64,000 nucleotides of DNA from an uncultured archaeon (GTDB lineage Archaea > Aenigmatarchaeota > Aenigmatarchaeia > GW2011-AR5 > JAHLMP01), in NCBI GenBank assembly GCA_964428495.1, contig CAYRXY010000003.1, positions 9,588 through 73,587 of the forward strand, written 5' to 3'. Below the pieces are notes generated by a model, which was given only the letters and a program-made list of their open reading frames with translations, was not told the DNA's origin and ran no database searches. This document shows positions 850 to 64,000 of the stretch, in pieces. A program made the position numbers and the translations under genes. The number at the start of each line of letters is the position of its first letter. The first letter of the stretch is position 1.

Positions 850-2059
850 ACCTCAACGCCTCAGCAGGTTGTAACTTTGCGGCACGTCTGGCTGGAGCAA
901 AACCAGCAATAGTACCAACAAAAAATGAAAATAAAAGTGCGCCAACAATTAACACCGGATTCACATATGCTTTAAGCATTGGCAGATTTACGCTAGCAGC
1001 ATAAATTTCAACAATTTTTGCTAATCCAACTCCTATTATACATCCAATAGCACCGCCACTCAAACCAATTAATCCTGCTTCAATAAGAAAGATGAGCATA
1101 ATATCTCTGTTGCTTGCACCAATGGCCTTCATAATTCCGATTTCTCTTGTTCTTTCCAGGGCTGCAGTGTACTGTGTATTCATTATTCCGACCCCACCGA
1201 CGAGAAGAGATATGGCTGCAATTCCAATTAACATTATTTGAAACATTCCTAAAACCGTTTGAATTCTTTCTAAAAGCTGACGAGATGTTTCGACACTAAA
1301 ACTCTCTTCACCTTCTTTCTCTCCCTTCACTTTTCTTAACTTTTCTTTTATCTCTTCTGCTACCTTATCCACATCTGCACCTTTTTTGACCTCAACTAGA
1401 ATCATCGAAACCTCATCCTCGGCATCAAAGAGCTCTCTTGCCCGATCTATGCTTATAACAGCACTTGTATCATCCATTCGATTTCCTATTTTATCCAGAA
1501 TGCCAACGACTTTAAATTTTTTATATTCGATTTCTATTTCATCTCCCGGTCTTATATTCTTGTCAAAAAAATCATGAGCAAGATCATAACCAATTACCGC
1601 TTCTGCCTTTGTTTCAGATGTAAGATCTCGGCCTTTTATTATTTCAAATTGTTGCATCGTTTCTATAATTTCTTTTGTTTCGTCTATCGGAATCCCTGTT
1701 ACAAATATGTACTTTGTCTCGCCGTTAAATGTAAGTTTAGCACTATTGGATAAAATTCCTGCTGCCATATCTACACCCCGAATTTTCTTTATTTTATCTA
1801 CATCTTCTTCTGTGAGAGGTTTTGAAGCAAAACCCGTGGAAAAGAAACCCATTTGGTTACCACTGCCAGACATTACAATAATTTTGTCTGCTCCCATCTT
1901 TTCGAATTGTTCTTCAATAGCGACATTCATACCTTGACCGAGCGATATAAGAGAAACAACAGCAGCTATGCCTATAAATATACCTATTATAGTTAGCATG
2001 GAACGTAATCTGCGATGTGTAAGATTTGTTATCACAAGTTTTATGTAGTCTGTTAACAT
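842..2059 (-). CDS. ABC transporter permease, MacB/FtsX family
   Basis: 405 aa. One N-terminal TM, a large periplasmic-type domain, and three C-terminal TMs with an FtsX-like motif. Forms an operon with the ABC ATPase. Confidence 0.85.
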   Translation of the reverse strand: MLTDYIKLVITNLTHRRLRSMLTIIGIFIGIAAVVSLISLGQGMNVAIEEQFEKMGADKIIVMSGSGNQMGFFSTGFASKPLTEEDVDKIKKIRGVDMAAGILSNSAKLTFNGETKYIFVTGIPIDETKEIIETMQQFEIIKGRDLTSETKAEAVIGYDLAHDFFDKNIRPGDEIEIEYKKFKVVGILDKIGNRMDDTSAVISIDRARELFDAEDEVSMILVEVKKGADVDKVAEEIKEKLRKVKGEKEGEESFSVETSRQLLERIQTVLGMFQIMLIGIAAISLLVGGVGIMNTQYTAALERTREIGIMKAIGASNRDIMLIFLIEAGLIGLSGGAIGCIIGVGLAKIVEIYAASVNLPMLKAYVNPVLIVGALLFSFFVGTIAGFAPARRAAKLQPAEALRYE

Positions 2060-2065
2060 GAGGAA

Positions 2066-2719
2066 TCACCTATTTCTTTTAATATATAATAGGTAAGAAT
2101 AGAAAATTAAATAACCAACTGTTACTATGATTAAGAGAACGGTAAAATAAAATATTTCCCCGCTTTTTGTAAAGTAGTTAATAAACAAGGTAATAATAAG
2201 AAGAAGTGATGTGAATTTGAATAATTTTTCACCTTGCTTATGTGTCTTCTTCCATACGTAATCGCTACTAAGCGTCCATGGAGTTCTAATGCCGATGAAC
2301 CAATTTCTCCTTGTGTATTTACAAAGTTCTCCGCACGCATAAAGAATTATCGAAACCACGGGAATAACAAAATAATGAGCTTGCCTAACTACGTAAAGAT
2401 TTGCATAGATAACAAAAGCTGTGACGTAAAACATAAATCCAAGTGTTAGAACACAAAACTTTTCATAAGCGCCCTGGAATTTTTTTACATTCTTTTTTAG
2501 TGGATCAATACGAGGTATTAATAAGAAAAGTAGCCACAAACCAAGTGAAAACAAAGGAAATGAAAATAACCAAATCCTACTTACGTAGCGGTCTGGTCCT
2601 TCAATATTCCAGTGGATAGTGATTCTCTCCGAGAGTAAAGGATAATAATAAATAGTTAGAATGAATGATAACGCAACAATTGCTACGCCGATTACCCTCC
2701 ATTTCATTTTCTCCTCCAC
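2066..2719 (-). CDS. Polytopic membrane protein, DUF1648/SdpI-like
   Basis: Motif ITIHWNIEGPDRYVSR after the first TM, typical of DUF1648/SdpI-family proteins. At least 5 TM segments. Confidence 0.5.
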   Translation of the reverse strand: MEEKMKWRVIGVAIVALSFILTIYYYPLLSERITIHWNIEGPDRYVSRIWLFSFPLFSLGLWLLFLLIPRIDPLKKNVKKFQGAYEKFCVLTLGFMFYVTAFVIYANLYVVRQAHYFVIPVVSIILYACGELCKYTRRNWFIGIRTPWTLSSDYVWKKTHKQGEKLFKFTSLLLIITLFINYFTKSGEIFYFTVLLIIVTVGYLIFYSYLLYIKRNR

Positions 2720-4363: not shown

Positions 4364-5545
4364 ATGTCATTTAAAGAAAATATAAAAAGACTATACATCT
4401 TCAATTTTGTTGCTTCATTCTGCTTAATTTGTGCAGTCATTGTACCATTTTACACAGAATGGGGTCACTTAAATTTCACGCAAATTATGATACTTCAATC
4501 ATGGTTCATGTTTTGGACATTTGTACTTCAAATACCTACCGGAGCCCTGGCTGACAAACTAGGTAGAAAGAAAGTTTTAGTCCTTGGTCTATTATCCGGT
4601 ATTTTGGCAAATATAATTTATGTTACAATTCCAAACTTCTTGGTCTTTATGATAGCTGAATTTTTCTTTGGATTGTCTGCTTCTTTGTTTACCGGATCGG
4701 AAGATGCGCTTCTTTATGATACGTTAAAGGCTACTGGAATGATTCACAGATCTAAATCCATTCTCGGCAGATTCGCAAGTTTTGGTCTTCTTAGTTTAGC
4801 TTTAGGATCTTTAACAAGTGGTATATTAGTCAAGTTCATTGGATTGAGATTATTAATGCTATTTTCAGCTGTGCCTTACGTCCTCTCACTCTTTATATTA
4901 ATTACTATAAAAGAGCCTCCAATCTACAGGAGAGAGATTATAAAAATTAAATCTATCATAAAAAATACTACGAAACTTCTTAGAGGGATTTACCCGCTAA
5001 AAATTATAGCAGTAGATTTCATAATCATATCAATAGTCTCATACTTCCTTTGGTGGTTATATCAGCCCCTACTTCAAAACATAAACATTGACTTGAAGTA
5101 CTTTGGAATAGCATTGTTTAGCATTTCGATTATTGAAATTATCCTGATGTTAAATTATGAAAGACTTGAAAAGATATTGGGCTCAAAAAAATCCCTAACG
5201 GTAATGACGTCTGCATTAACAGGATTGTTTGCAATCCTCTCAATAGGTTCTGCCTTTGTTGGACTAAGACTATTTGCGTTCGTATTCATAACTTTAGCTG
5301 CAGGTATAGGTCTGGGCCGGAGACCGTTGATGATAAATTACTTAAATAAGTATATTCCACCGGAGATAAGAGCAACAGCTCTCTCGACTTTTGGAATGAT
5401 TAGAACTTTAAGTCTGATGATACTAAATCCGGTCATAGGTTGGTTAGCAGATTGGTCTATAGAATTAACTATTCTTGCTATAGGTATCATTGCAGTAATA
5501 TTCTCAATTCTATCAAGAATTGAAGAAAAACACCTTTTAGATTGA
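4364..5545 (+). CDS. MFS-family transporter
   Basis: 393 aa with about 12 TM. Motif GALADKLGRKKVL between TM2 and TM3 is typical of the major facilitator superfamily. Confidence 0.8.
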   Translation: MSFKENIKRLYIFNFVASFCLICAVIVPFYTEWGHLNFTQIMILQSWFMFWTFVLQIPTGALADKLGRKKVLVLGLLSGILANIIYVTIPNFLVFMIAEFFFGLSASLFTGSEDALLYDTLKATGMIHRSKSILGRFASFGLLSLALGSLTSGILVKFIGLRLLMLFSAVPYVLSLFILITIKEPPIYRREIIKIKSIIKNTTKLLRGIYPLKIIAVDFIIISIVSYFLWWLYQPLLQNINIDLKYFGIALFSISIIEIILMLNYERLEKILGSKKSLTVMTSALTGLFAILSIGSAFVGLRLFAFVFITLAAGIGLGRRPLMINYLNKYIPPEIRATALSTFGMIRTLSLMILNPVIGWLADWSIELTILAIGIIAVIFSILSRIEEKHLLD

Positions 5546-7138
5546 TTCAGCTTTTTTAAATAAAATCTTCGGTTTCTTTACCTTGTGATTCTCATCAAGA
5601 AGAATATTTCCAACATTTTTCCACTTTAGCTCTTTGTCACTTAAATTAAGTAATCTCCATATTTCTTTTACCGAGAATGGAATAAACGGATAGAGAAGAA
5701 TTGATATGTTTGCTATAGCGTTTGCACAGATAAATAGGCAATCTTTATCTCCTGTCTTCCAAGGTTCTTTTTCTTGAAAATAAGCATTACAAAATTTAGA
5801 AAAGTTCATAATCTCCTTTAATGCTTGATTAAATTTAAGTTCTATCATTAATTTGTAAACTCTTTCTTTTAGTTTTTGGATATTTTCAATTACAAGACTA
5901 TCTACTTCATTTGGTTTTGGTATTTTACCATCAAAATTCTTCCATATGAAACTCAGAACCCTAAACACAAAATTACCAAAATTTGCAATCAGCTCGTTAT
6001 TTATTCTATCTTCAAATTCCTCCCAATCAAAATTTATATCCTTTTGAGAGTATGGAGTCAAGCCGGAGAGATAATATCTCAGATAATCTGCAGGGTACTT
6101 CTCTAAAAATTCTTTTATGCTAATATACCAATTTCTACTTTTTGATAATTTTTTACCTTCTAAGAGAAAGTACCCTCTTGTTGGTATATAGTCTGGTAGT
6201 TTAAACGTTCCTTCAGCTATTCTCATTGCTGGTAAAAATATGTAGTGATGATAAACTATGTCTTTTCCTATAAAATGATATATCTTCGATGAATTCCAAA
6301 ACTCAACCGGATCGATTCCTTTTTTCTTCAAATATTCCATTATAAAAGAGATATAACCGAGATGATTATCGAACCATCCATAAAGTACCTTTCCTTTTGC
6401 TTCTTTCAATGGAACTGGAACTCCCCACTCTATATCTCGAGTTATATCCCAATCTTTCAGACCTTCTTTAATCCATGACAACACGTAGTTTTTTACATCA
6501 TCCTGTAGATTTTCATTTTCTTCAAGCCACTTTTTCAGCTCATTAGTAAATTCAGATAACTTAAAAAAGTAGTGAGCACTTTTTCTAATTACTGGTTTTG
6601 CCCCACAGATAGCACAATATGGATCAATCAGTTCTAATTGTGAATAAGTTCGACCACAAACCTCACAACTATCTCCATATTGGTCTTTAGCTCCACAATA
6701 CGGACAGGTCCCTTTAACATATCTGTCCGGTAGGAATTTCTTATCATTCTCACAGTAATACTGTTCTATTTCTTTCTTGTATATCAAATTTTTCTCCCAT
6801 AAAACTTTGAAGAAATGTTGAACAAGTTCCCTATGACTCTTAGAATGTGTATGACCAAAAACATCAAAGTCTATTCCAACGCCTCTCAAGTCCTTTTCAT
6901 CTCTCTCCCACCAAATCTTAACAAACTCTTCTGGGGTCATTCCTCTTTTTTCGGCATTCAAAACAACAGGAACTCCATAGTCATCTGTACCACATACATA
7001 TATGACTTCATTATCAAGAATTCTTTGAAATTTTACAAATATATCCGCAGGTAAGTAAGTTGATGCAATATGACCTAGATGAAGCTCACCATTACTATAA
7101 GGTAAAGCTGCAGTAACTATTATTCTTTCCTTCTCCAT
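5537..7138 (-). CDS. metG: Methionyl-tRNA synthetase
   Basis: Class I HIGH-type motif PYSNGELHLGH, KMSKS-type motif KLSKSRNW, and a Zn knuckle CPYCGAKDQYGDSCEVCG. Confidence 0.95.
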   Translation of the reverse strand: MEKERIIVTAALPYSNGELHLGHIASTYLPADIFVKFQRILDNEVIYVCGTDDYGVPVVLNAEKRGMTPEEFVKIWWERDEKDLRGVGIDFDVFGHTHSKSHRELVQHFFKVLWEKNLIYKKEIEQYYCENDKKFLPDRYVKGTCPYCGAKDQYGDSCEVCGRTYSQLELIDPYCAICGAKPVIRKSAHYFFKLSEFTNELKKWLEENENLQDDVKNYVLSWIKEGLKDWDITRDIEWGVPVPLKEAKGKVLYGWFDNHLGYISFIMEYLKKKGIDPVEFWNSSKIYHFIGKDIVYHHYIFLPAMRIAEGTFKLPDYIPTRGYFLLEGKKLSKSRNWYISIKEFLEKYPADYLRYYLSGLTPYSQKDINFDWEEFEDRINNELIANFGNFVFRVLSFIWKNFDGKIPKPNEVDSLVIENIQKLKERVYKLMIELKFNQALKEIMNFSKFCNAYFQEKEPWKTGDKDCLFICANAIANISILLYPFIPFSVKEIWRLLNLSDKELKWKNVGNILLDENHKVKKPKILFKKAESI

Positions 7139-8789: not shown

Positions 8790-8936
8790 TGCGGGGGGCC
8801 GGACTCGAACCGGCGAACCCACTAAGGGAGTAGGTTCCTCCCTTAATTTCAACTCGTCTTGAGCTTCGTCGTCATGAGCCCAAACGGCTTCCGAGCTCAA
8901 TGACTCTACCGCCTTTGACCGCTTGGCTACCCCCGC
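8790..8936 (-). tRNA. tRNA of unresolved identity, about 147 nt, intron-containing
   Basis: Acceptor stem 5'-GCGGGGG/3'-CCCCCGC, D-arm GCC-AAGCGGUCAAA-GGC, T-arm GCCGG-UUCGAGU-CCGGC. About 60 extra nt between the D-arm and T-arm include a 9-bp hairpin (UUAAGGGAG/CUCCCUUAG). Consistent with an archaeal bulge-helix-bulge intron and/or a long variable arm. A possible CAU triplet is present, but the anticodon could not be resolved by eye. Confidence 0.55.
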
Positions 8937-12253: not shown

Positions 12254-12392
12254 GGGCCGGTAGTCTAGTGGAAGGACGCCGCCTTCGCAAGGCGGAGATC
12301 CTGGGTTCAAAGGTACATTAGTGGGTTTGACATACAGAATATGTTAATTATCATTTTACTCCACTAATGATCTGAAAGTCCCAGCCGGTCCA
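12254..12392 (+). tRNA. tRNA-Ala (CGC) with a 67-nt non-canonical intron in the T-loop
   Basis: Acceptor GGGCCGG/CCGGUCC with the G3:U70 alanine identity pair. Anticodon arm CCGCC-UUCGCAA-GGCGG. T-stem CUGGG...CCCAG is interrupted after UUCA(A) by an insert containing a 9-bp hairpin (CAUUAGUGG/CCACUAAUG). Discriminator A; CCA not encoded. Confidence 0.7.
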
Positions 12393-12408
12393 TCAAAAAT
12401 AAGAAGTA

Positions 12409-12483
12409 TGGGCAGGGCCGGATTTGAACCGGCGACCTCCACGTTATCAGCGTGGCGCTCTAACCAGGCTAAGCTACCCGCCC
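12409..12483 (-). tRNA. tRNA-Ile (GAU)
   Basis: GGGCGGG-UA-GCUUAGCCUGGUUAGAGC-G-CCACG-CUGAUAA-CGUGG-AGGUC-GCCGG-UUCAAAU-CCGGC-CCUGCCC-A. Canonical cloverleaf with no intron. Confidence 0.85.
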
Positions 12484-12527
12484 ATTAACAAGAATTCTAT
12501 AGAATAAAAAATATTAAAGTTTTGGGT

Positions 12528-53969: not shown

Positions 53970-53984
53970 ATACGTGTGAGTAAT

Positions 53985-56900
53985 ATGATAAAAAAAATAA
54001 TATCGGCCGCGATTTTAATGTTATTTATATTATCCACTATAGCCTTTTCTTTACCCATATCTTCATCTTACATAGAATCTGGGAATAGTGCGACAGTTCA
54101 AATGAACTCTGGTTCTGTATTTTATGGAGAGGTTGATGCTGGTCAGGTCGTTTCTTGGAAATATCTGAAGTATCAAATTTCTGGAACTGGTATTACTGCA
54201 CAAGCTATGGTTAATGTTTCTGACTATGAAAACTTTGCCTCTGTAAAAGGTAGTACTGGTTGGTTTTCTATTAACGCAGATGGCGTACTTGATATTAAAG
54301 AATTATCATCAACATTTAACCTTCCATATGCACGATATGCTCGATTCGCAATAAAAGGAACTGGAGGAGCCTGGCAAATTGATCAATCATGGTTAGAAAT
54401 TTCCACCGGTCCTGATGTATTTCAACCAAAAACGTATTCTACTACAGGAACAGAAAAAACAACATTTAATGATGGTGATAATGTTGTAATAAAAGTGAAC
54501 GTTACAGATCCTGATGGGGCATCTGACATAGGTAGTGTATTGATAAACATAACTGATCCAAACGGTGTTTCAAGAGTTATAAATGGAGTAATGAGTGTTG
54601 ACTCTTCTATAAGTTACGGAAAAACGTATAGATATAACTTTTCAACTACAAATGTAAATGGGACTTGGTCCTTTACAATAGTGGCAAAAGATTCTACTGA
54701 AAAAACCGATTCAAAAGCTGGATCCTTTGTTATAGTTGATACACATGCACCAACCATTACTCTAAATTCTCCAGCTAACAATGATTGGACAAACAATAAT
54801 AAACCCACATTCTACTTTACACCTGATGATTATATTGATCCGGTTTTGGATTGTAGTCTTTACATTGATGGAAATGCCTGCGGTTCAACAACTGCAGATA
54901 GAGGACAACAATCAAGTATAACATCTACATGTACATTAACTGTTGGAGCTCACAATTGGTATATCAAATGTACAGATGATAAGGGTAATACCGGCCAATC
55001 ATCAGAAACGTGGACGATAAACATTGACACCACTCCACCAACCTATACTTGGCTTTCTCCATTGAGTGGAAGTTGGTATAAAGATGGAGATTCAATTAGT
55101 ATTGATGTTGATGTTTCTGATGGAACAGGTGTCGGAATAAATGATGGGGAAAATTGTAATGTAGAGATAGATGATTCAACGACATCGTTTACGGGGACAG
55201 TTACTTATAGTAGTGCGACAGGTAAATGTACTGGAACGATAAAGCTGAATAATCCATCAAATCTAGCAGAAGGTTCAAATTCTCATTCGATAACTGTTAG
55301 TGTTCCTGACAAGTTAGATAATGTACAGACATCTTCAGGACTGTTAATTTCGATTGATAATACTCCACCAACGATAACTTATGTAACTCTAAGTGATTAT
55401 GATGTTCAACCGGGGACAACAATCACGGTAACTACGGATGGCTCTGATTCACTTAGTAGCATAAATACTTGTCATGCTTATCTTGATGATGACACAAACT
55501 ATGGAAATGGATATCTAGATGACTTGGGTGAGTTAGGAACCGACTGTAGTGGACCTGTAACATTACCTTCTGTTAGCAACGGAATCTATTATATAGTCGT
55601 TAGACCAGTGGATAATGTGGGTCTTTCAAACACGAAGGCAAGTAGTGCGCTTAAAATCGATTCAACTTCCCCATCTTGTTTAATCAAATCAATAAAAGAA
55701 GTTTCTGGAACTGATTATTCTTATGTAAGTGGAACCACGATATGGTACAATAATGTAAGTAGTGGTTCATTCATGGTCAATGTATCTGCAAGTGACGATC
55801 TTGCAGGAGTAAGTAGGGTGGTGTTTCCTGCTACAACATCATCTGGTACAACCGACTATTCATCGCCATATAACCACACATACACCTGGTCTATTGGTTC
55901 GAGTTATTCCAGTACAGCAAATGTAACGTGTTATGATAAGGCAGAAAATTCCGCTACTACTTCATTTACCATAACTTTAGACAATACTCCTCCATCTGAT
56001 GGTTCAATAACTTACACTGATGGTTACTACACAACAAAGAGCGTTTCCATATCATATTCATTAGGTTCTGATAATGTGGGTGGTGTCGGCCTTAACACTG
56101 CAACTGGTAGGATTGAGAGAAACTCAGCACCACTAAGTGGTGGTGTTTGTGGTTCTTGGTCTGGATGGACAACGCTCTTATATGATTCTGATGGAACTCA
56201 TGTAGATGAAACCGTCCAAGATAATTATTGCTATCAGTATATATACAGAATCTGTGACGAAGTAAGCAATTGTAAAAATTACACTTCTACCAATATCGCT
56301 AAAGTGGATTCCGTATTACCAACAATTTCATATATTGAACCACCGACTGAAACAAACAACAGTATTATTCATGAACCATTCATAGAAGTGAAGGTTTCAA
56401 CAAGCGATGCTGGTGCTGGTGTTGATAAGATTACCATCTACCTCTACAGAGCAGATACAAAAGCCGGACCTTACACACTAAATGCGACCAAGACATTATA
56501 CTACTCTGGTCAAACCTCTGCTTCACTCTTGGCAAACTTCACGGGATTGGGAGATGGATTTTACAAGTTCAACGCAACAGTCTGGGATCAAGCAGGAAAC
56601 AAACAATCAACAATGACAAGAACCGTTTCAATAAGTCTTAACCCAACAAACTTAACAGATCTTTCGTATTCCTGTGAAGATGATTGTGGATGGGGTGAAG
56701 CATGGAACTTCACCGCCAACATCACCGACAAAGACAATAATCAACGGCTGAATCTCACGTTGCAGTTGTTTAATAGATCAGGATCCGGAATGTGGGAAAA
56801 CATCGACTCTAAAATAGTGTACAGCAACGGAGATAGTTTTGCCGAGACATTCTCGTTAGATCCTGCCTGGACTAATATAGATTCTAACAAAACAAGGGAG

Positions 56901-59900
56901 TTTAGATTTATGGCCACTGATAACTGGGATGCTACATTCTATAGCGATCCTATAACTGTCGATGTCAAGAGAGATGATGTGCTGTTAAGTATCACAAAAG
57001 GTATTAATGAAATTGTAAACAGGGATGACAGTACCGACTACTCAAATGTAACACTTGAAGCAAGGTTATACGATGTGGATAAAGACGGATACGTAGCTGG
57101 AGAAAACATAGATTTCTTGTTCTTAAATGCTAATGGTTGGATCAAAATAGGATCGTCCACTACAAATGGAAATGGTTACGCTGAATTTATATGGAACCCA
57201 GATTGTACTATCTCACCATTAGGAGAACATCAATGGAGTGTGAACCATTCAACAAGTTCATTATACAAATTTACATCTAACAGTAGTCAAGTAACAATTA
57301 GAGAAAAGCTTCATGTAACCATTTTACAGCCAACTAATGGTGAAATAGTACATAGAAATAAGATATATCAATACTTACGTGCTAGCATTGCCGATTCTTG
57401 TGGGAATGACTTAACATCTAGCTCTACGATAGATTGGTCAACAGGAGCAAAGGGTCCTAGCGTGGAATGGTCAGTACCAGATCAACTAGGGAATTTCACT
57501 ATAACCGTCAATGGAAGTATTTCTGATTCATTTTATGATCCAGGGGACTCGAGTGTCATCGTGAAAATATTTGGATATTCTAAAACCACCGACTTACAAA
57601 CATATGCTCTATGGTCTCATAACGAAACATCAGCAATTAAAGGCGAACCTGTTAAGATAAATTGCAACGTAAATGATGAAAAAGACTCTCCTATATCTAG
57701 CTATCCGGTGAATTTCTCTGTATTCAATTCCACTGGTTCACTAATCTCATCTTATGTAAACTATACCAATTCATCTGGTGTTGCAACGTGGATATGGAAT
57801 ACAAGTGGAAAATCCGTTGAGACTTACACGATAAAATGTTCAATAGATAATATCGAAGATCCTCAAAACCAACTATATTATAGTATTACTAGCGATTATA
57901 ACCAACTACAGAAGAGCTTTGATGTAAAATATCAAGATCGATTACTCCTTGAAACTGATAATAGCTGGATATATAGAAACAACACGTTTAACCCTCACGT
58001 AGCAACAATAACTGCAAAATTCATGAAATCATATGAGGATATGCAAAGTGGATATATAGAATTCACATATAAGAATGGAACACATATAGCCAGTTGTTCA
58101 GCCGATTCATCAGGTACATGTTCAATAACATACGATGAGTCAGACTCCGCAACTCCTGAGGAATATTTAATAAAAGTGGGTGCTGCAAAAGATCTCGATA
58201 ATTTCCTTGATAAAAATTATACTGCAACATCTAATATATCCATAGAAGTAAGAGGTAAATTAAGTCCTGTAACTTTAATCAAACCAATTTCAGAGGCTAA
58301 ATTCAATAAAACGAACTATATAAACTTTTCTTCATCTGTTGAAGATGAAAACGGTAATGTTGTAAATGCTAATGTTTCATATATTCTTTCTGGAAACAAT
58401 AAAGGTGACTTTAGAATAGTAAAGGACGTATCATCTGAAGAGACTAGATGGAAAATATTTAATGATCTAAAACCTGATTCATACTCAATAACTGTAAATG
58501 CAACAAGACCATATTATACAGGTAGTAGTACGCTTGGTTCGAGGAGTATTTACATTTACGGTTTTGCTAACGTCACGAATCTAACATTAGATTATCCTCT
58601 TTACAATGCACCAACAAAGGTAAGCTGTAAGGTAATTGATAGAGACTCATCTGAGCTTCCAATAAGTAAATATAATGTAAGCTTCTGGTATGAGAAGTTG
58701 GGTATATGGACTCTAATAGGGTCTAATCTGACAGACACCAATGGTACTGCTACGATGTGGTGGATTCCTGATATTGTAGGCACAACCAAACTAAAATGTA
58801 ATATTTCTGATCAATTAAAGATATTTTACTATGCAAATCCTTTAGCAAGTGAAGTGATCAATGACACTGTGTCTGTTGGCGATAACGAATCGCCAGAAAT
58901 TCATTCATTTGAAAAAATTGGAACTACACCGTTAGAGGCAAACCATCAGAGCTTGACATTCAAAGCAAACGTAAGCGATAATGTAGAGATAAGTAGTGTA
59001 CGGGTTGAGATTACCGGAGTTGAGAGTGATATTGTTATCTTAAACCCCGAGTCCATAGATGATAGAGGAAATGGAATTTATTCGATAGTTTATACACCAA
59101 AGAAGGGTGGATTTCACTATGCTACATTGTATGTAAATGACACGACTAACAATACCAACTCCAGTGAATCAATTAGCTTTAATGTAATTGGTACTGCTAA
59201 TGAGAGCATGAGTATTACACCAACCTCCGTAACAACGGATGATAACATAACGAGGGATAATCCTTACAACTTTACGCTAAATATTATTGTCAATAACACA
59301 GGATCATCAGATATTATTAACAATGGAACAATGTACAATGTCAACATGTCTCTTGATCTTCCAACCGGTTTCACAACAAAAAATATAACTAAAATATGTG
59401 AATCCGTTCCTGTTGGTGGAACGTGTGAATGGAACCCTGAAATTCAGGTAACGAATATTGTGGATCTCGGTACAAACACAATAACTATTAATGCTAAATG
59501 GAATAACCCAGATAACAGTATATCGACAGATTCTAAATCAATTTCAGTAGATGTTTTGGAACACCCAGAAATATCTATAGAACCTAACCCAGTAATAGGT
59601 ACAGCTAATCACGGAGAGACGATAGAAATACCTATAAATGTTTCAAACTTTGGAAACACAATTCTATATGCAATAGGTTCTTCCTGTTTAACATATACAT
59701 ATCCACTTAATTGTAGCTACATAACTCCATCGATTCCATATAGTTTAAATAAAAATGATACTCAAAGTGGTAATATTGTTGTTAAAATACCAAAAGGTAC
59801 TGATCCTAAACAGTACGAGTGGAAGCTTAGAATTAATTCAACAAAATATGTAAATAGTTATGGTGAATATGTCTCTTGTACTTCACAAGGATGTTATAAA

Positions 59901-62900
59901 GATATTACCGTAGATGTTAATGTAAATGAGGATAAAAGTTGGAGCATCTCACCTAATAAAACAAATCTTTTAGTTCCTATAGAAGATTATAGATCAATAA
60001 ACATAACATTAAACAATACCGGTAATGTTGATAGAAATTGGACTATTTCCACATCGGGCTGTGGTAACATAATTGGTCTAGTTGTATCTCATCCACAGTC
60101 TATATATGTTCCAAAAATCAGTAGCAAGATCATTCCTATAACCATAGATGCAACAAATGCCGAAAATGGTGGAAATTGCACGATAATTATTTCATTCAGT
60201 AATTCTAGTGCAGAACCACAAGCCAATAGCACGGTGATTAACTTAACTGTAGAGGACACCCCACCTAATTTTAATGTTCAGATTCTTCCATACGATTATA
60301 TAGATATGGGCAAAGAGGATGTTACAATAAACGCAACCGTGGGTGATAATAAATTAGTTATCTATGATGGTATCAATCTTACAAAACCAGACGGATCAAC
60401 TATAGTTCTAGTTGGAAAGAAAAGTGTTAGTCGACCATCTGATACAATGACACATGTCATCTTAAGTTCAGAATTAGACCAGCCAGGAGAATATAAAGTA
60501 AAGGTCTATGCATGGGATAATGCCAATCCAAGTAAATATAATGAAACTATTATAACTTTCCATGTATACCCAACAACATCTTTAGCATTAAAGACTAACT
60601 ATACGTCAACTACTATGTTGAATACTGTAGAAGTAAATGGAATAACAGCAGAGGATTCAAAGACTGTATCAGTTAACGTGACTATTAATAACACAAAGAG
60701 GATTGGAGCTTATAATGTTAATCTAACAGGAATCAATGGTCCATTGAATAAAAAATTCACTTTAACACCATCATCACAATACTACAATAAAATAAAGATA
60801 CCTCCTGTTATAAGTAAGGTATTCAATATAACGATACCCGCAGGTACACCACCTTCAGGCTCTACAGAATACTATGTTACATTCGGAGCTCGATGGGAGA
60901 ATCCGGATGGAACAATTGACTCTACTTCAACCCCCTTCTATATTAAAGTAAACCCGACGAAAATATTAGAGATCACATCCAATTCATCGACCTATACCGT
61001 TCCTCACGCATCAAAGAAAACAATAAATATTACTTTATATTCAAGAGGTAATGCTCCTATCGATAACATAAAATTATCATGTGTACCAGTCGGATTGATA
61101 GATTATTGTAAGAATTTCAGCGTATCTATTACACCATCAAGCACAAGTTTAGGAGCCGGAGAAAAGACAATAGCTAAAATGACATTAAATGTCCCATTCA
61201 CATATCCTCCTGGAGACTATAATATAAAAATCGTTGCAAATTCATCAGACTTAAATGACGTAGTAAGTCTTCCTTTAACTATTCACGTACCTGTAGACAC
61301 AACTTGGAACTTAACTCCAACACAATACAACTTCACAACAGGTAGTGGAAGCTATGGATACTTCTATGTCAACGTTTCATCATACGCAAACGTTAACTTA
61401 AGCTTTACAACATCTTACACCAATCCAAACATAACGGCTTCTGAAACAACCTTCACACTCAAAAAAGGCACACTTCGCCTCCTAAAAATTAATTATACGG
61501 CACCAGAACTTGCTGAGAATGAAAATGAAAGAAATATTACTGGAAATGTAACTGTTTCATGTACTGATTGTGGACCTCTACAAAATCAAATACAATCCTC
61601 CACTCTCAATGCAAACATGAGAGTACTTCCATTCAAGCTTTATATAGAAAATATTGAACCGACTAATGATATAAGAGCTGGAGACGAAATTCAGGCAATA
61701 GTAAATGTTACATTTGCGGGTCAAATCTTAACAGATCCAAAACTCGTAGCATTCAATGCATATATAGGAGATAAACCATGTGAAACTACAAGTGAATTAT
61801 TCAATATAAGTAAATGGAAGGTAAGATTCAAAGCACCAACACTCCCAGACGGGAAGAATTACACGTTGAGAATAGAAGCTATTCAACTACAATACAATGC
61901 AAGAACTCCAAGATATTTCAATTACATCCATTATAAAGACGTGACCCCTCCTAACATAACATCTGTTAAAACGAGCTTCATAGAACCACAAAAACCTGAA
62001 GAAATATACGTTAATGTAACCGACAATGTTAAGGTAGACAAAGTCTGGATAGTAATATACCACAATGGATCCGTATTTGGAAGCTTTAATTTAACTAACC
62101 TTACAACTAACTTCGTAAATTCAAAATGGAAATGGAAATCACCAGCATTAACTCTCCCAGGAGATTATGATGTTGTAATTTATGCAAATGATACTACTGG
62201 TAATATAGCAAACCTAAGTACATGGTTCAGAGTTAATCAAAAGGTTAGAATAGAGGGAATTGTAAAAGATGTTAAAGAAAATCCAGTACCAGTAGAATTA
62301 GGAATTTATAAGAATACAAAAGCTGGAATAGGTTCGTACATGGTTACAAAAATCATGAATCATACTGGAAGTTACAACGTAAGTATACCTAAAGGAAAAT
62401 ATGACATCACGATTAAGGCATTAGGTAATGAATTCACATTCAGAGATGTGAATGTTGAATCCAACTTAACAAATATAACCAGAGTGAGTGATGTTGATCT
62501 AAGTGTTGTAACTTCACAACTACCTCTAGAGGGGGGACAATTACTAGGAGCGATAGGAATTGAACATAACATTTCATATTCATCTGCAGATGTTATCTTG
62601 AACTTTTCATCAGAAAATCTGATTCCAGGAGATCTCGGACTGAAGAATATTGAGGTATATAGATGTGATGATTGGGACTTTGATAATCAAACATGTAATG
62701 GTGAATGGACCAAGGTAGAAAATACTGAGGTTGATGTGGCAAACTTACTCATAAAGGTACCGTCAACAAAGCTTTGTGCATTTGTAATTGTAAAACCAGC
62801 TGTTGCACCTTCTACAGTTACAGTTCCGCCACAGCAACCGACATCACCTGGAGGTGGCAGCACAGGCATATCATCTCAGTTAGAAGAGGCTTTAGAGAAA

Positions 62901-64000
62901 TTAGTTAATCAGAGCCAATTACCACCAATATCAGCAGAAACCGATTTAATTGAGGCGACACTTCATCCAGGAGAATCTAAACTATTCTCGTTATATCTTT
63001 CGAACAATCTCAACAAACCGGTTACGGCCCATATAAAAATACTTGGAAGTATTTGGCAGTTTGTCCAGTTAGAGAAGGATAATGTCACTATACCTGGAGG
63101 TGGTTCTGAATCTGTCCAGATGAAAGTCTACACATTACCAACAACACCTGTAGGAACATATACAGGCGATATCATAATTTCAACAGACAAGTATACAAGA
63201 ACGATACCAATAACGTTGATGGTTGTACCACCTAAAGAAGCTTTACTTGATCTAAAGGTCAATGCAATAACTAAAGAAGTTCCAATTAATGGAAGTTTGA
63301 AATACTATGTAACACTCTATAACTTGGGTACAAAGAAGAGATTTGATGTCACACTAATATACAGGATCAAATCTGCTACAACAGAGGAAATTCTTGATTA
63401 CAAAGAAGAGACTTTGGCAATAGAAACATCTCTTGCATTTGTCAGAGTTTATGATTTGTCTAAAGTAAAGGGAATAGTTCTAGGAAAATACTTTATTGAA
63501 GTAATAGCAAAATATGATAATAAAACAGCTAGTGCAGTAGACATATTCGAAATTAAGAAGCCGTTCTGGACCAAGGAAAGAATTATGTTGCTTGGTATAC
63601 TAGCAGCATTGATAATAAGCGTTTTGGTTGGTTGGAAAGGTAAACAGTACTATGACAAATGGAAGTTAAAGAAGATGAGATACTTACATCCCGTTGATAT
63701 GAAGAGTCTTCCAAAGGGTGAAGTATGGCTCGGTAAATTAGCAGAGATGAATGTAAGAGCTGAATTCAAGATGGATGATTTAACAACTCACGCAATAGTC
63801 GCAGGTGCAACAGGTTCCGGTAAATCTGTTGCTGCAATGGCCATTGCAGAAGAAGTATTGAAACAAGATATTCCTGTTGTCGTATTCGATCCAACAGCAC
63901 AATGGACAGGATTTGTAAGACCATGCAGAGATAAGAAGATGTTATCATTCTACAAGAAGTTTGGTCTAAGAGAGGAAGATGCAAGACCATTCAAAGGTAT
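53985..64000 (+). CDS. Giant surface protein (at least 3,338 aa, 3' end beyond window): signal peptide, many Ig-like/beta-sandwich modules, C-terminal TM helix and cytoplasmic FtsK/HerA-type P-loop ATPase domain
   Basis: Hand translation shows an uninterrupted ORF from ATG 53985 to the window end. Sec signal MIKKIISAAILMLFILSTIAFSLP. Repeated modules are bounded by D-x-T-P-P-T/S linkers. N-x-S/T sequons occur throughout. TM helix IMLLGILAALIISVLVGW (about 63584-63645). Walker A HAIVAGATGSGKSVAAMAIAEEVL...VVVFDPT (63801-63829). Confidence 0.85.
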   Translation, partial: MIKKIISAAILMLFILSTIAFSLPISSSYIESGNSATVQMNSGSVFYGEVDAGQVVSWKYLKYQISGTGITAQAMVNVSDYENFASVKGSTGWFSINADGVLDIKELSSTFNLPYARYARFAIKGTGGAWQIDQSWLEISTGPDVFQPKTYSTTGTEKTTFNDGDNVVIKVNVTDPDGASDIGSVLINITDPNGVSRVINGVMSVDSSISYGKTYRYNFSTTNVNGTWSFTIVAKDSTEKTDSKAGSFVIVDTHAPTITLNSPANNDWTNNNKPTFYFTPDDYIDPVLDCSLYIDGNACGSTTADRGQQSSITSTCTLTVGAHNWYIKCTDDKGNTGQSSETWTINIDTTPPTYTWLSPLSGSWYKDGDSISIDVDVSDGTGVGINDGENCNVEIDDSTTSFTGTVTYSSATGKCTGTIKLNNPSNLAEGSNSHSITVSVPDKLDNVQTSSGLLISIDNTPPTITYVTLSDYDVQPGTTITVTTDGSDSLSSINTCHAYLDDDTNYGNGYLDDLGELGTDCSGPVTLPSVSNGIYYIVVRPVDNVGLSNTKASSALKIDSTSPSCLIKSIKEVSGTDYSYVSGTTIWYNNVSSGSFMVNVSASDDLAGVSRVVFPATTSSGTTDYSSPYNHTYTWSIGSSYSSTANVTCYDKAENSATTSFTITLDNTPPSDGSITYTDGYYTTKSVSISYSLGSDNVGGVGLNTATGRIERNSAPLSGGVCGSWSGWTTLLYDSDGTHVDETVQDNYCYQYIYRICDEVSNCKNYTSTNIAKVDSVLPTISYIEPPTETNNSIIHEPFIEVKVSTSDAGAGVDKITIYLYRADTKAGPYTLNATKTLYYSGQTSASLLANFTGLGDGFYKFNATVWDQAGNKQSTMTRTVSISLNPTNLTDLSYSCEDDCGWGEAWNFTANITDKDNNQRLNLTLQLFNRSGSGMWENIDSKIVYSNGDSFAETFSLDPAWTNIDSNKTREFRFMATDNWDATFYSDPITVDVKRDDVLLSITKGINEIVNRDDSTDYSNVTLEARLYDVDKDGYVAGENIDFLFLNANGWIKIGSSTTNGNGYAEFIWNPDCTISPLGEHQWSVNHSTSSLYKFTSNSSQVTIREKLHVTILQPTNGEIVHRNKIYQYLRASIADSCGNDLTSSSTIDWSTGAKGPSVEWSVPDQLGNFTITVNGSISDSFYDPGDSSVIVKIFGYSKTTDLQTYALWSHNETSAIKGEPVKINCNVNDEKDSPISSYPVNFSVFNSTGSLISSYVNYTNSSGVATWIWNTSGKSVETYTIKCSIDNIEDPQNQLYYSITSDYNQLQKSFDVKYQDRLLLETDNSWIYRNNTFNPHVATITAKFMKSYEDMQSGYIEFTYKNGTHIASCSADSSGTCSITYDESDSATPEEYLIKVGAAKDLDNFLDKNYTATSNISIEVRGKLSPVTLIKPISEAKFNKTNYINFSSSVEDENGNVVNANVSYILSGNNKGDFRIVKDVSSEETRWKIFNDLKPDSYSITVNATRPYYTGSSTLGSRSIYIYGFANVTNLTLDYPLYNAPTKVSCKVIDRDSSELPISKYNVSFWYEKLGIWTLIGSNLTDTNGTATMWWIPDIVGTTKLKCNISDQLKIFYYANPLASEVINDTVSVGDNESPEIHSFEKIGTTPLEANHQSLTFKANVSDNVEISSVRVEITGVESDIVILNPESIDDRGNGIYSIVYTPKKGGFHYATLYVNDTTNNTNSSESISFNVIGTANESMSITPTSVTTDDNITRDNPYNFTLNIIVNNTGSSDIINNGTMYNVNMSLDLPTGFTTKNITKICESVPVGGTCEWNPEIQVTNIVDLGTNTITINAKWNNPDNSISTDSKSISVDVLEHPEISIEPNPVIGTANHGETIEIPINVSNFGNTILYAIGSSCLTYTYPLNCSYITPSIPYSLNKNDTQSGNIVVKIPKGTDPKQYEWKLRINSTKYVNSYGEYVSCTSQGCYKDITVDVNVNEDKSWSISPNKTNLLVPIEDYRSINITLNNTGNVDRNWTISTSGCGNIIGLVVSHPQSIYVPKISSKIIPITIDATNAENGGNCTIIISFSNSSAEPQANSTVINLTVEDTPPNFNVQILPYDYIDMGKEDVTINATVGDNKLVIYDGINLTKPDGSTIVLVGKKSVSRPSDTMTHVILSSELDQPGEYKVKVYAWDNANPSKYNETIITFHVYPTTSLALKTNYTSTTMLNTVEVNGITAEDSKTVSVNVTINNTKRIGAYNVNLTGINGPLNKKFTLTPSSQYYNKIKIPPVISKVFNITIPAGTPPSGSTEYYVTFGARWENPDGTIDSTSTPFYIKVNPTKILEITSNSSTYTVPHASKKTINITLYSRGNAPIDNIKLSCVPVGLIDYCKNFSVSITPSSTSLGAGEKTIAKMTLNVPFTYPPGDYNIKIVANSSDLNDVVSLPLTIHVPVDTTWNLTPTQYNFTTGSGSYGYFYVNVSSYANVNLSFTTSYTNPNITASETTFTLKKGTLRLLKINYTAPELAENENERNITGNVTVSCTDCGPLQNQIQSSTLNANMRVLPFKLYIENIEPTNDIRAGDEIQAIVNVTFAGQILTDPKLVAFNAYIGDKPCETTSELFNISKWKVRFKAPTLPDGKNYTLRIEAIQLQYNARTPRYFNYIHYKDVTPPNITSVKTSFIEPQKPEEIYVNVTDNVKVDKVWIVIYHNGSVFGSFNLTNLTTNFVNSKWKWKSPALTLPGDYDVVIYANDTTGNIANLSTWFRVNQKVRIEGIVKDVKENPVPVELGIYKNTKAGIGSYMVTKIMNHTGSYNVSIPKGKYDITIKALGNEFTFRDVNVESNLTNITRVSDVDLSVVTSQLPLEGGQLLGAIGIEHNISYSSADVILNFSSENLIPGDLGLKNIEVYRCDDWDFDNQTCNGEWTKVENTEVDVANLLIKVPSTKLCAFVIVKPAVAPSTVTVPPQQPTSPGGGSTGISSQLEEALEKLVNQSQLPPISAETDLIEATLHPGESKLFSLYLSNNLNKPVTAHIKILGSIWQFVQLEKDNVTIPGGGSESVQMKVYTLPTTPVGTYTGDIIISTDKYTRTIPITLMVVPPKEALLDLKVNAITKEVPINGSLKYYVTLYNLGTKKRFDVTLIYRIKSATTEEILDYKEETLAIETSLAFVRVYDLSKVKGIVLGKYFIEVIAKYDNKTASAVDIFEIKKPFWTKERIMLLGILAALIISVLVGWKGKQYYDKWKLKKMRYLHPVDMKSLPKGEVWLGKLAEMNVRAEFKMDDLTTHAIVAGATGSGKSVAAMAIAEEVLKQDIPVVVFDPTAQWTGFVRPCRDKKMLSFYKKFGLREEDARPFKG

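Follow-up and report, generated by a model that had tools for sequence, protein, structure and literature searches.

[quoted passage not shown] The intron described here, which interrupts a tRNA-Ala(CGC) gene, is also of the BHB type, but it is found in a non-canonical position and is devoid of C/D boxes. The motif to which the archaeal endonuclease responds has a 3-nt bulge on either strand, with a 4-bp helix in between, and cleavage takes place behind the second nucleotide of both bulges (PMC4090602). Positions 59/60 and 30/31 are listed among the non-canonical archaeal intron positions (PMC4090602), and an intron at 59/60 in tRNA-Ala is therefore of a kind already known. Indeed, to judge from the summary given in PMC4090602, non-canonical BHB introns have been described in Thermoproteales and in nanoarchaeal tRNAs (Marck & Grosjean 2003; Sugahara et al. 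2007/2008). Like these, the tRNA-Ala intron lies outside position 37/38, has junctions that can be folded into two 3-nt bulges around a 4-bp helix (3-4-3), is short and AT-rich and is flanked by intact exons, but its host belongs to the Aenigmarchaeota, its central helix is weak and its intron-side helix is imperfect.

For DPANN lineages, numerous disrupted tRNA genes are furthermore reported, along with endonucleases whose inserts broaden their specificity (PMC5829648, PMC3239211), and the broad-specificity EndAs include the epsilon2 enzyme of Candidatus Micrarchaeum (ARMAN-2) and alpha4 enzymes with an L3 loop (PMC3239211, PMC5829648). The organism studied here is of the same superphylum, its tRNA set is likewise incompletely detected by standard predictors, and a single genome contains several motifs that are non-canonical or relaxed, in this case those at Ala 59/60 and Leu 30/31. 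It differs from the DPANN systems with a typed EndA in that no EndA, be it of the alpha4 + L3, (alpha-beta)2 or epsilon2 type, was detected among the 50 window ORFs scanned. A search of the open-access literature returned no description of tRNA introns for Aenigmarchaeota. As far as it is characterised by its citation in PMC4090602, a system of 2010 is comparable in that close relatives differ in whether they have a given intron and in that one intron family appears to occur in two tRNAs, which here are tRNA-Leu (position 37/38, locus L013) and tRNA-Ile (D-loop, locus L007); it differs in that the tRNA-Ala intron is without a detectable relative and in that a handful of loci rather than whole genomes is compared here. 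With a probability of roughly 0.85, we consider the present locus to be a functional aenigmarchaeotal tRNA-Ala(CGC) gene with a 67-nt BHB intron in the T-loop at 59/60, which was gained recently and in one species.

The interrupted tRNA-Ala gene and its host

The gene is found in the window, by which we mean the whole 64-kb stretch of DNA that was analysed, and its parts are collected in the table. The 5' exon reads GGGCCGG UA GUCU AGUGGAA GGAC G CCGCC UUCGCAA GGCGG AGAUC CUGGG UUCAAA and comprises the acceptor 5' strand with G3, the D arm, the anticodon arm, the variable loop, the T-stem 5' strand and U54-A59. The G3:U70 pair is present, U70 being found within the acceptor 3' strand CCGGUCC, and CCA is not encoded. 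Reading of the sequence bears out the original prediction in its coordinates, in the insert length of 67 nt and in the hairpin of 9 bp, as well as in the G3:U70 pair, the anticodon loop UUCGCAA and the T-stem halves CUGGG and CCCAG that it had named. The G+C content is 31% in the insert, 64% in the exons and 35% in the whole window. The window holds a single match to the exon pattern and none of 100 shuffles holds one, and the unspliced region folds far better than its shuffles (z = -4.9).

Features of the interrupted tRNA-Ala gene and of the neighbouring tRNA-Leu gene in the window (arrows mark predicted cuts)
Feature	Position	Strand	Basis
tRNA-Ala(CGC) gene, split by insert	12254-12392	+	read from sequence
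5' exon, tRNA positions 1-59 (58 nt, no position 17)	12254-12311	+	sequence, ARAGORN, alignment
Anticodon CGC, in anticodon loop UUCGCAA	12286-12288	+	
T-stem 5' strand CUGGG	12301-12305	+	
BHB central 4-bp helix, exon strand UUCA (U54-A57)	12306-12309	+	4/4 pairs with UGAA
5' bulge AA↓G, predicted cut 12311/12312	12310-12312	+	BHB scan
Intron, 67 nt, tRNA position 59/60	12312-12378	+	orthologue-matching excision and BHB cut sites
Intron hairpin 5' arm CAUUAGUGG, 9 bp (extended intron-side helix h')	12316-12324	+	
Intron hairpin 3' arm CCACUAAUG, 9 bp	12361-12369	+	
BHB central 4-bp helix, intron strand UGAA	12373-12376	+	BHB scan
3' bulge AG↓U, predicted cut 12378/12379	12377-12379	+	BHB scan
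3' exon U CCCAG CCGGUCC A (U60, T-stem 3' strand, acceptor 3' strand, discriminator A73)	12379-12392	+	
T-stem 3' strand CCCAG	12380-12384	+	
Hidden tRNA-Leu(CAA), two introns, between ERCC4-type nuclease gene and mre11	8790-8936	-	
tRNA-Leu intron, 41 nt, position 30/31, relaxed BHB, 3/4 central helix	8865-8905	-	
tRNA-Leu intron, 22 nt, canonical position 37/38	8836-8857	-	

The unspliced gene is not called by ARAGORN, be it with or without the intron option, which fails here since it models introns of the anticodon loop only. Nor is it called by Rfam at the gathering threshold, and in E-value mode a partial tRNA match of 26.2 bits is obtained (cut-off 29) in which the T arm is skipped. Removal of 12312-12378, on the other hand, leaves a 72-nt sequence that folds into a normal cloverleaf, is called tRNA-Ala(cgc) by ARAGORN and equals intron-less orthologues across the T arm. 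But for the insert the tRNA gene is thus complete, and excision of the insert restores the canonical cloverleaf. The fact that standard tRNA finders overlook both this gene and the neighbouring tRNA-Leu is on its own mainly a matter of annotation, in that the genome would seem short of two tRNAs. Because tRNA finders miss genes of this type, small DPANN genomes often come out as incomplete.

The gene is convergent with a tRNA-Ile gene on the minus strand, the two being 16 nt apart (12392-12408). This spacer holds a T-run for the minus-strand tRNA-Ile and none for tRNA-Ala on the plus strand, and the tRNA-Ala transcript would therefore run into tRNA-Ile antisense.

As to the host, the window encodes TBP, MCM, PCNA, EF-1alpha, CDP-archaeol synthase, Tyw1, several aminoacyl-tRNA synthetases and Mre11-Rad50, and relatives of two window proteins are named Candidatus Aenigmarchaeota or Aenigmatarchaeota. 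Judging from these proteins, the host is a DPANN archaeon of the phylum Aenigmarchaeota. The intron had been expected to be informative about the lineage, but it was the proteins and not the intron that revealed it. A Pfam scan of 50 ORFs of the window detected neither tRNA_int_endo (EndA) nor RtcB. The far end of the window is taken up by a single open frame on the plus strand (53970-64000), which has its first ATG near 53985, spans at least 3343 codons and runs off the window end; it has a signal-like hydrophobic stretch at its start and, near the window end, a Walker-A ATPase motif (AGATGSGKS) following a transmembrane segment, and it resembles the giant surface proteins that are common in DPANN genomes.

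Predicted excision site and bulge-helix-bulge motif

Taken alone, the sequence leaves the boundary of the insert ambiguous, since AAAG is found at both junctions. The motif ranked first in a BHB scan was CUGGG UUCA (AA↓G) G opposite C UGAA (AG↓U) CCCAG, where arrows mark the predicted cuts; its central helix is complete (4/4), its exon-side helix is the 5-bp T-stem and both bulges measure 3 nt. Cutting after the second bulge base would join 12311 to 12379 (…GGGUUCAAA followed by UCCCAG…), which gives the junction A59-U60 and the T-loop UUCAAAU, as found in orthologues. Furthermore, of the possible 67-nt excisions, the one between A59 and U60 is alone in giving the T-loop of the orthologues. 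BHB cut sites and orthologues thus agree that the intron sits at 59/60, and the original prediction was right in placing it outside 37/38, but its choice of 57/58 or 58/59 has to be corrected in view of the bulges and of the orthologous T-loop. A second BHB register, GUUC/GAAA, in which the intron would measure 69 nt, has 3/4 pairs and yields a T-loop seen in no orthologue, and was rejected.

Among shuffled introns, a 4/4 helix in register is found in 1.7%, or in 0.7% when one flanking pair is required as well, and the motif by itself is therefore moderate evidence; the case is strong because the BHB cuts coincide with the insertion boundaries set by orthologues. The rule for placing the cuts has a positive control in locus L007, where a tRNA-Ile gene has an intron of its own and the predicted splice reproduces the intron-less tRNA-Ile of the window. 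The BHB helix of that tRNA-Ile is fully populated, with a probability of about 1.0, as compared to 0.07-0.15 for the tRNA-Ala intron. The junctions of the latter can form two opposite-strand 3-nt bulges around a 4-bp helix, but this helix is AU-rich and absent from the minimum-free-energy fold, the values of 0.07-0.15 being its predicted pair probabilities and hence its occupancy. Enforcing cloverleaf and central helix together gives -53.4 as against -55.4 kcal/mol, a cost of 2 kcal/mol, and the local scores are -21.1 kcal/mol for the strict 3-nt-bulge register, -24.1 for a 2-nt-bulge register and -27.3 for the local optimum. The intron-side helix consists of one G:C pair, the mismatches U.U and A.A and then 9 bp in the strict register, and of 3 bp, a bulged A and then 9 bp in the 2-nt-bulge register; the strict hBHBh' form calls for a flanking helix of 2 bp or more on either side.

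At the junctions, whose fold the original prediction had proposed to check, the standard core motif thus comes out first in the BHB scan, and the intron-side flanking helix is imperfect. The further notion that such an intron requires an endonuclease of relaxed specificity does not follow from the tRNA-Ala intron, since the core can be drawn as a standard 3-nt bulge, 4-bp helix and 3-nt bulge and only the intron-side helix departs from the standard form.

Gene, motif, boundaries and distribution are read from the sequence, and the steps of a processing pathway can be proposed by analogy with established archaeal tRNA splicing. A precursor transcript of approximately 139 nt would be made, in which U54-A57 would pair with a UGAA close to the intron's 3' end. 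The 4-bp central helix formed in this way would have the T-stem (CUGGG/CCCAG) on one side and the hairpin of the intron on the other. EndA would cleave after the second base of each 3-nt bulge, that is AA↓G and AG↓U, and an RtcB ligase would join A59 to U60, giving a 72-nt tRNA with the T-loop UUCAAAU. CCA would then be added to the spliced tRNA-Ala, a step that is proposed because CCA is not encoded.

Distribution among relatives and alternative readings

The intron is found in three assemblies of a single species, and the three copies are identical. Apart from the window, the same 139 nt are present in L001, an independent Logan assembly from another sequencing run, and the identical intron occurs in L013, which belongs to a separate NCBI MAG (GCA_021160745.1, 'Candidatus Aenigmarchaeota archaeon'). 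The Rad50 of this MAG is 99% identical to that of the window, with 8 amino-acid differences, and the sole change in its tRNA-Ala is C25 to U, by which the D-stem pair G10:C25 becomes G:U and pairing is kept.

Outside the species, L007 has the same synteny as the window, namely L11, a hypothetical protein (72% identical), tRNA-Ile and a convergent tRNA-Ala, and its tRNA-Ala reads ATCCTGGGTTCAAATCCCAGCCGGTCCA, which is exactly the window exons joined at 59/60 over the 28 nt that can be compared before the contig ends. An uninterrupted 7-nt T-loop is likewise found in the tRNA-Ala(CGC) genes of L002 (Rad50 70% identical, the first 47 nt of the tRNA-Ala identical to the window), of L011 and L012 (Rad50 53% identical), of L006, which is a Nanobdellati MAG and the sole GTDB genome matching the exon pattern, and of L005, a distant metagenome contig; in L007, L002, L006, L011 and L012 this T-loop reads UUCAAAU. 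In the window, L011 and L012 the tRNA directly follows rad50, and in L002 it comes one gene further on, a 332-codon gene without Pfam match (5373-6371, minus strand) being placed between rad50 and the intron-less tRNA-Ala.

On this comparison the intron is not ancestral, and since it is missing from all other relatives examined, parsimony would place its gain in the window's species, so that it looks like a recent, species-level gain. Intron-less orthologues that both date an intron to species level and fix its boundaries to the base are rarely available. Searches of the 64-kb window, of 13 related loci and of viral contigs yielded no second copy of the 67-nt intron, and in a comparison with 7 other collected introns there was no similarity to five (shuffle fractions 0.23-0.97). 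The near-matches are the intron of the tRNA-Leu(UAG) of L011, with a shuffle fraction of 0.056, and the short tRNA-Leu intron of L002, which resembles the 3' end of the tRNA-Ala intron (ACCGCTCTGAGAT versus ATGATCTGAAAG).

In the first place, the same distribution may be read as that of a pseudogene, made by a very recent 67-nt inactivating insertion that is never spliced, with GCG being read by another tRNA-Ala. The confinement of the insertion to one species, the thermodynamic weakness of the BHB helix and the lack of a terminator-like T-run after the gene are all in agreement with this, splicing is here a prediction from the sequence, and a tRNA-Ala with the anticodon CGC could be dispensable if a UGC isoacceptor exists. 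The insert, however, brings with it an in-register 4/4 complement to U54-A57 together with two 3-nt bulges that put the cuts precisely on the insertion boundaries, the exons are otherwise intact and the sole difference between strains keeps pairing. In addition, BHB introns in other tRNAs of the clade interrupt conserved genes and so have to be spliced. We therefore regard inactivation as unlikely and a functional, intron-containing tRNA-Ala gene as the better reading.

It is very unlikely that the insert arose when a miniature transposable element bearing terminal inverted repeats, or what remains of an integrated element, happened to land in the T-loop. tRNA genes are common integration targets, the insert has 9-bp inverted repeats and AAAG is found at both junctions. 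Miniature inverted-repeat elements are however recognised by inverted repeats at their termini, by a duplication of the target site and by the presence of multiple copies in the genome, and the insert fits none of these: comparison with the orthologues reveals no target-site duplication but exactly 67 nt between A59 and U60, retention of one AAAG copy would give an 8-nt T-loop found in no orthologue, the inverted repeats are internal rather than terminal, and the insert is present as a single copy across the window, the 13 related loci and the viral contigs.

A role as carrier of a small RNA, for instance a C/D-box guide as in the tRNA-Trp intron of Euryarchaeota, for the sake of which the intron would be kept, seems equally improbable. 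C/D-box sRNAs have a C box (RUGAUGA) and a D box (CUGA) at opposite ends and internal C'/D' boxes. The intron does contain one CUGA beside an AUGAU-like string near its 3' end, but it has no RUGAUGA or UGAUGA box, the CUGA is the only one, and the two strings are adjacent instead of at opposite ends. Furthermore, no Rfam family matches at E <= 10 except for a 13.5-bit noise match, and the intron is missing from all relatives outside the species. Self-splicing introns of group I or group II have a ribozyme core of hundreds of nucleotides that covariance models recognise, and this candidate was rejected for an insert of 67 nt with no Rfam intron family at E <= 10.

Finally, although the sources are metagenome assemblies, an assembly artefact or chimera is next to inconceivable, since three assemblies of the species share the split gene, one of them from a different sequencing run and another being a different MAG with 8 amino-acid changes in Rad50 and one changed exon base.

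Introns in other tRNA genes of the clade

The tRNA-Leu(CAA) gene of the window is likewise hidden, being missed by ARAGORN and by Rfam at the gathering threshold; the E-value mode of Rfam gives it 37.6 bits with a 72-nt insertion. When spliced twice it measures 84 nt and is called tRNA-Leu(caa), and its anticodon arm, GUAGG-CUCAAGA-CCUAC, is the same as in L011 and L012, where the orthologues are intron-less. For this gene, scoring every single deletion with ARAGORN was abandoned, as it gave 1165 spurious calls, and comparison with orthologues was used instead. With its 3/4 central helix, the intron at 30/31 would be a better argument for a broad specificity of EndA than the tRNA-Ala intron.

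The tRNA-Leu of L002 retains both introns with diverged sequence. The 41-nt intron at 30/31 is also found in L002 (1891-1930), L003 (199-239), L004 (69-107) and L013 (538-578), and it is 92-100% conserved across lineages in which Rad50 is only 60-70% identical, which hints at a constraint on its sequence or structure. The intron at 37/38, on the other hand, varies at the strain level, since it measures 63 nt in L013 (481-531, minus strand) versus 22 nt in the window, at 99% identity of Rad50, and the extra 41 nt, which include a 9-bp hairpin, are flanked by a GACGAG direct repeat.

In L007, the closest relative outside the species, the situation is reversed relative to the window, in that the tRNA-Ala is intron-less and the D-loop of the tRNA-Ile(GAU) (2531-2656, plus strand) is interrupted after G19 by a 51-nt intron that shows a full BHB motif, UUA GCCU (GG↓A) CGA opposite UCG AGGC (AA↓U) UAG, whereas the tRNA-Ile of the window (12408-12484, minus strand) is intron-less. 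ARAGORN mis-calls the interrupted gene as a 76-nt tRNA at 2582-2657. The long 37/38 intron in the tRNA-Leu of L013 is significantly similar to this tRNA-Ile intron, with a local alignment score of 29 that is reached by 0 of 2000 shuffles; the first 10 nt of the two are identical and two hairpin pairs have compensatory changes. This suggests that one intron family is present in two different tRNAs by way of transposition between them.

Three tRNA genes thus vary in intron content among relatives at 50-99% protein identity. The intron at Ala 59/60 occurs only in the window's species and the D-loop intron of tRNA-Ile only in L007, and the introns at Leu 30/31 and 37/38 are, among the loci compared, confined to the subclade of the window, L002 and L003. 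This handful of loci suggests active gain, loss or transposition of introns in the clade. Taken together, the reciprocal tRNA-Ile intron, the family shared by tRNA-Leu and tRNA-Ile and the gain in tRNA-Ala point to active intron turnover in a DPANN lineage, and the chances are about even that BHB introns are currently mobile in this clade of Aenigmarchaeota and that the one at Ala 59/60 is one of several very recent gains. Active intron turnover has so far been documented mainly in Thermoproteales. Should the turnover hold genome-wide, the clade would be a natural system in which to catch the mechanism by which BHB introns are gained outside Thermoproteales, and turnover among close aenigmarchaeotal relatives is indeed a more interesting lead than the tRNA-Ala intron itself.

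Two further observations concern the tRNA-Leu locus. In L002, the sequence GGCGAUGAUGACGUUUGACCGCUGCUGAUGCCC (1966-2000, minus strand) is found directly upstream of the tRNA-Leu and fused to its 5' end; it has a C-box-like AUGAUGA, a D-box-like CUGA and complementary ends, and does not occur in the orthologous leader of the window. In L003, the end of contig JBPCZG010000014.1 (1-270) holds the start of the ERCC4-type gene and a tRNA-Leu that has both introns. Its sequence there is almost the same as that of the window, whereas the adjacent mre11-rad50 of the same contig is only about 60% identical, and this stretch could be a chimeric contig end or mark a recombination breakpoint at the tRNA gene.
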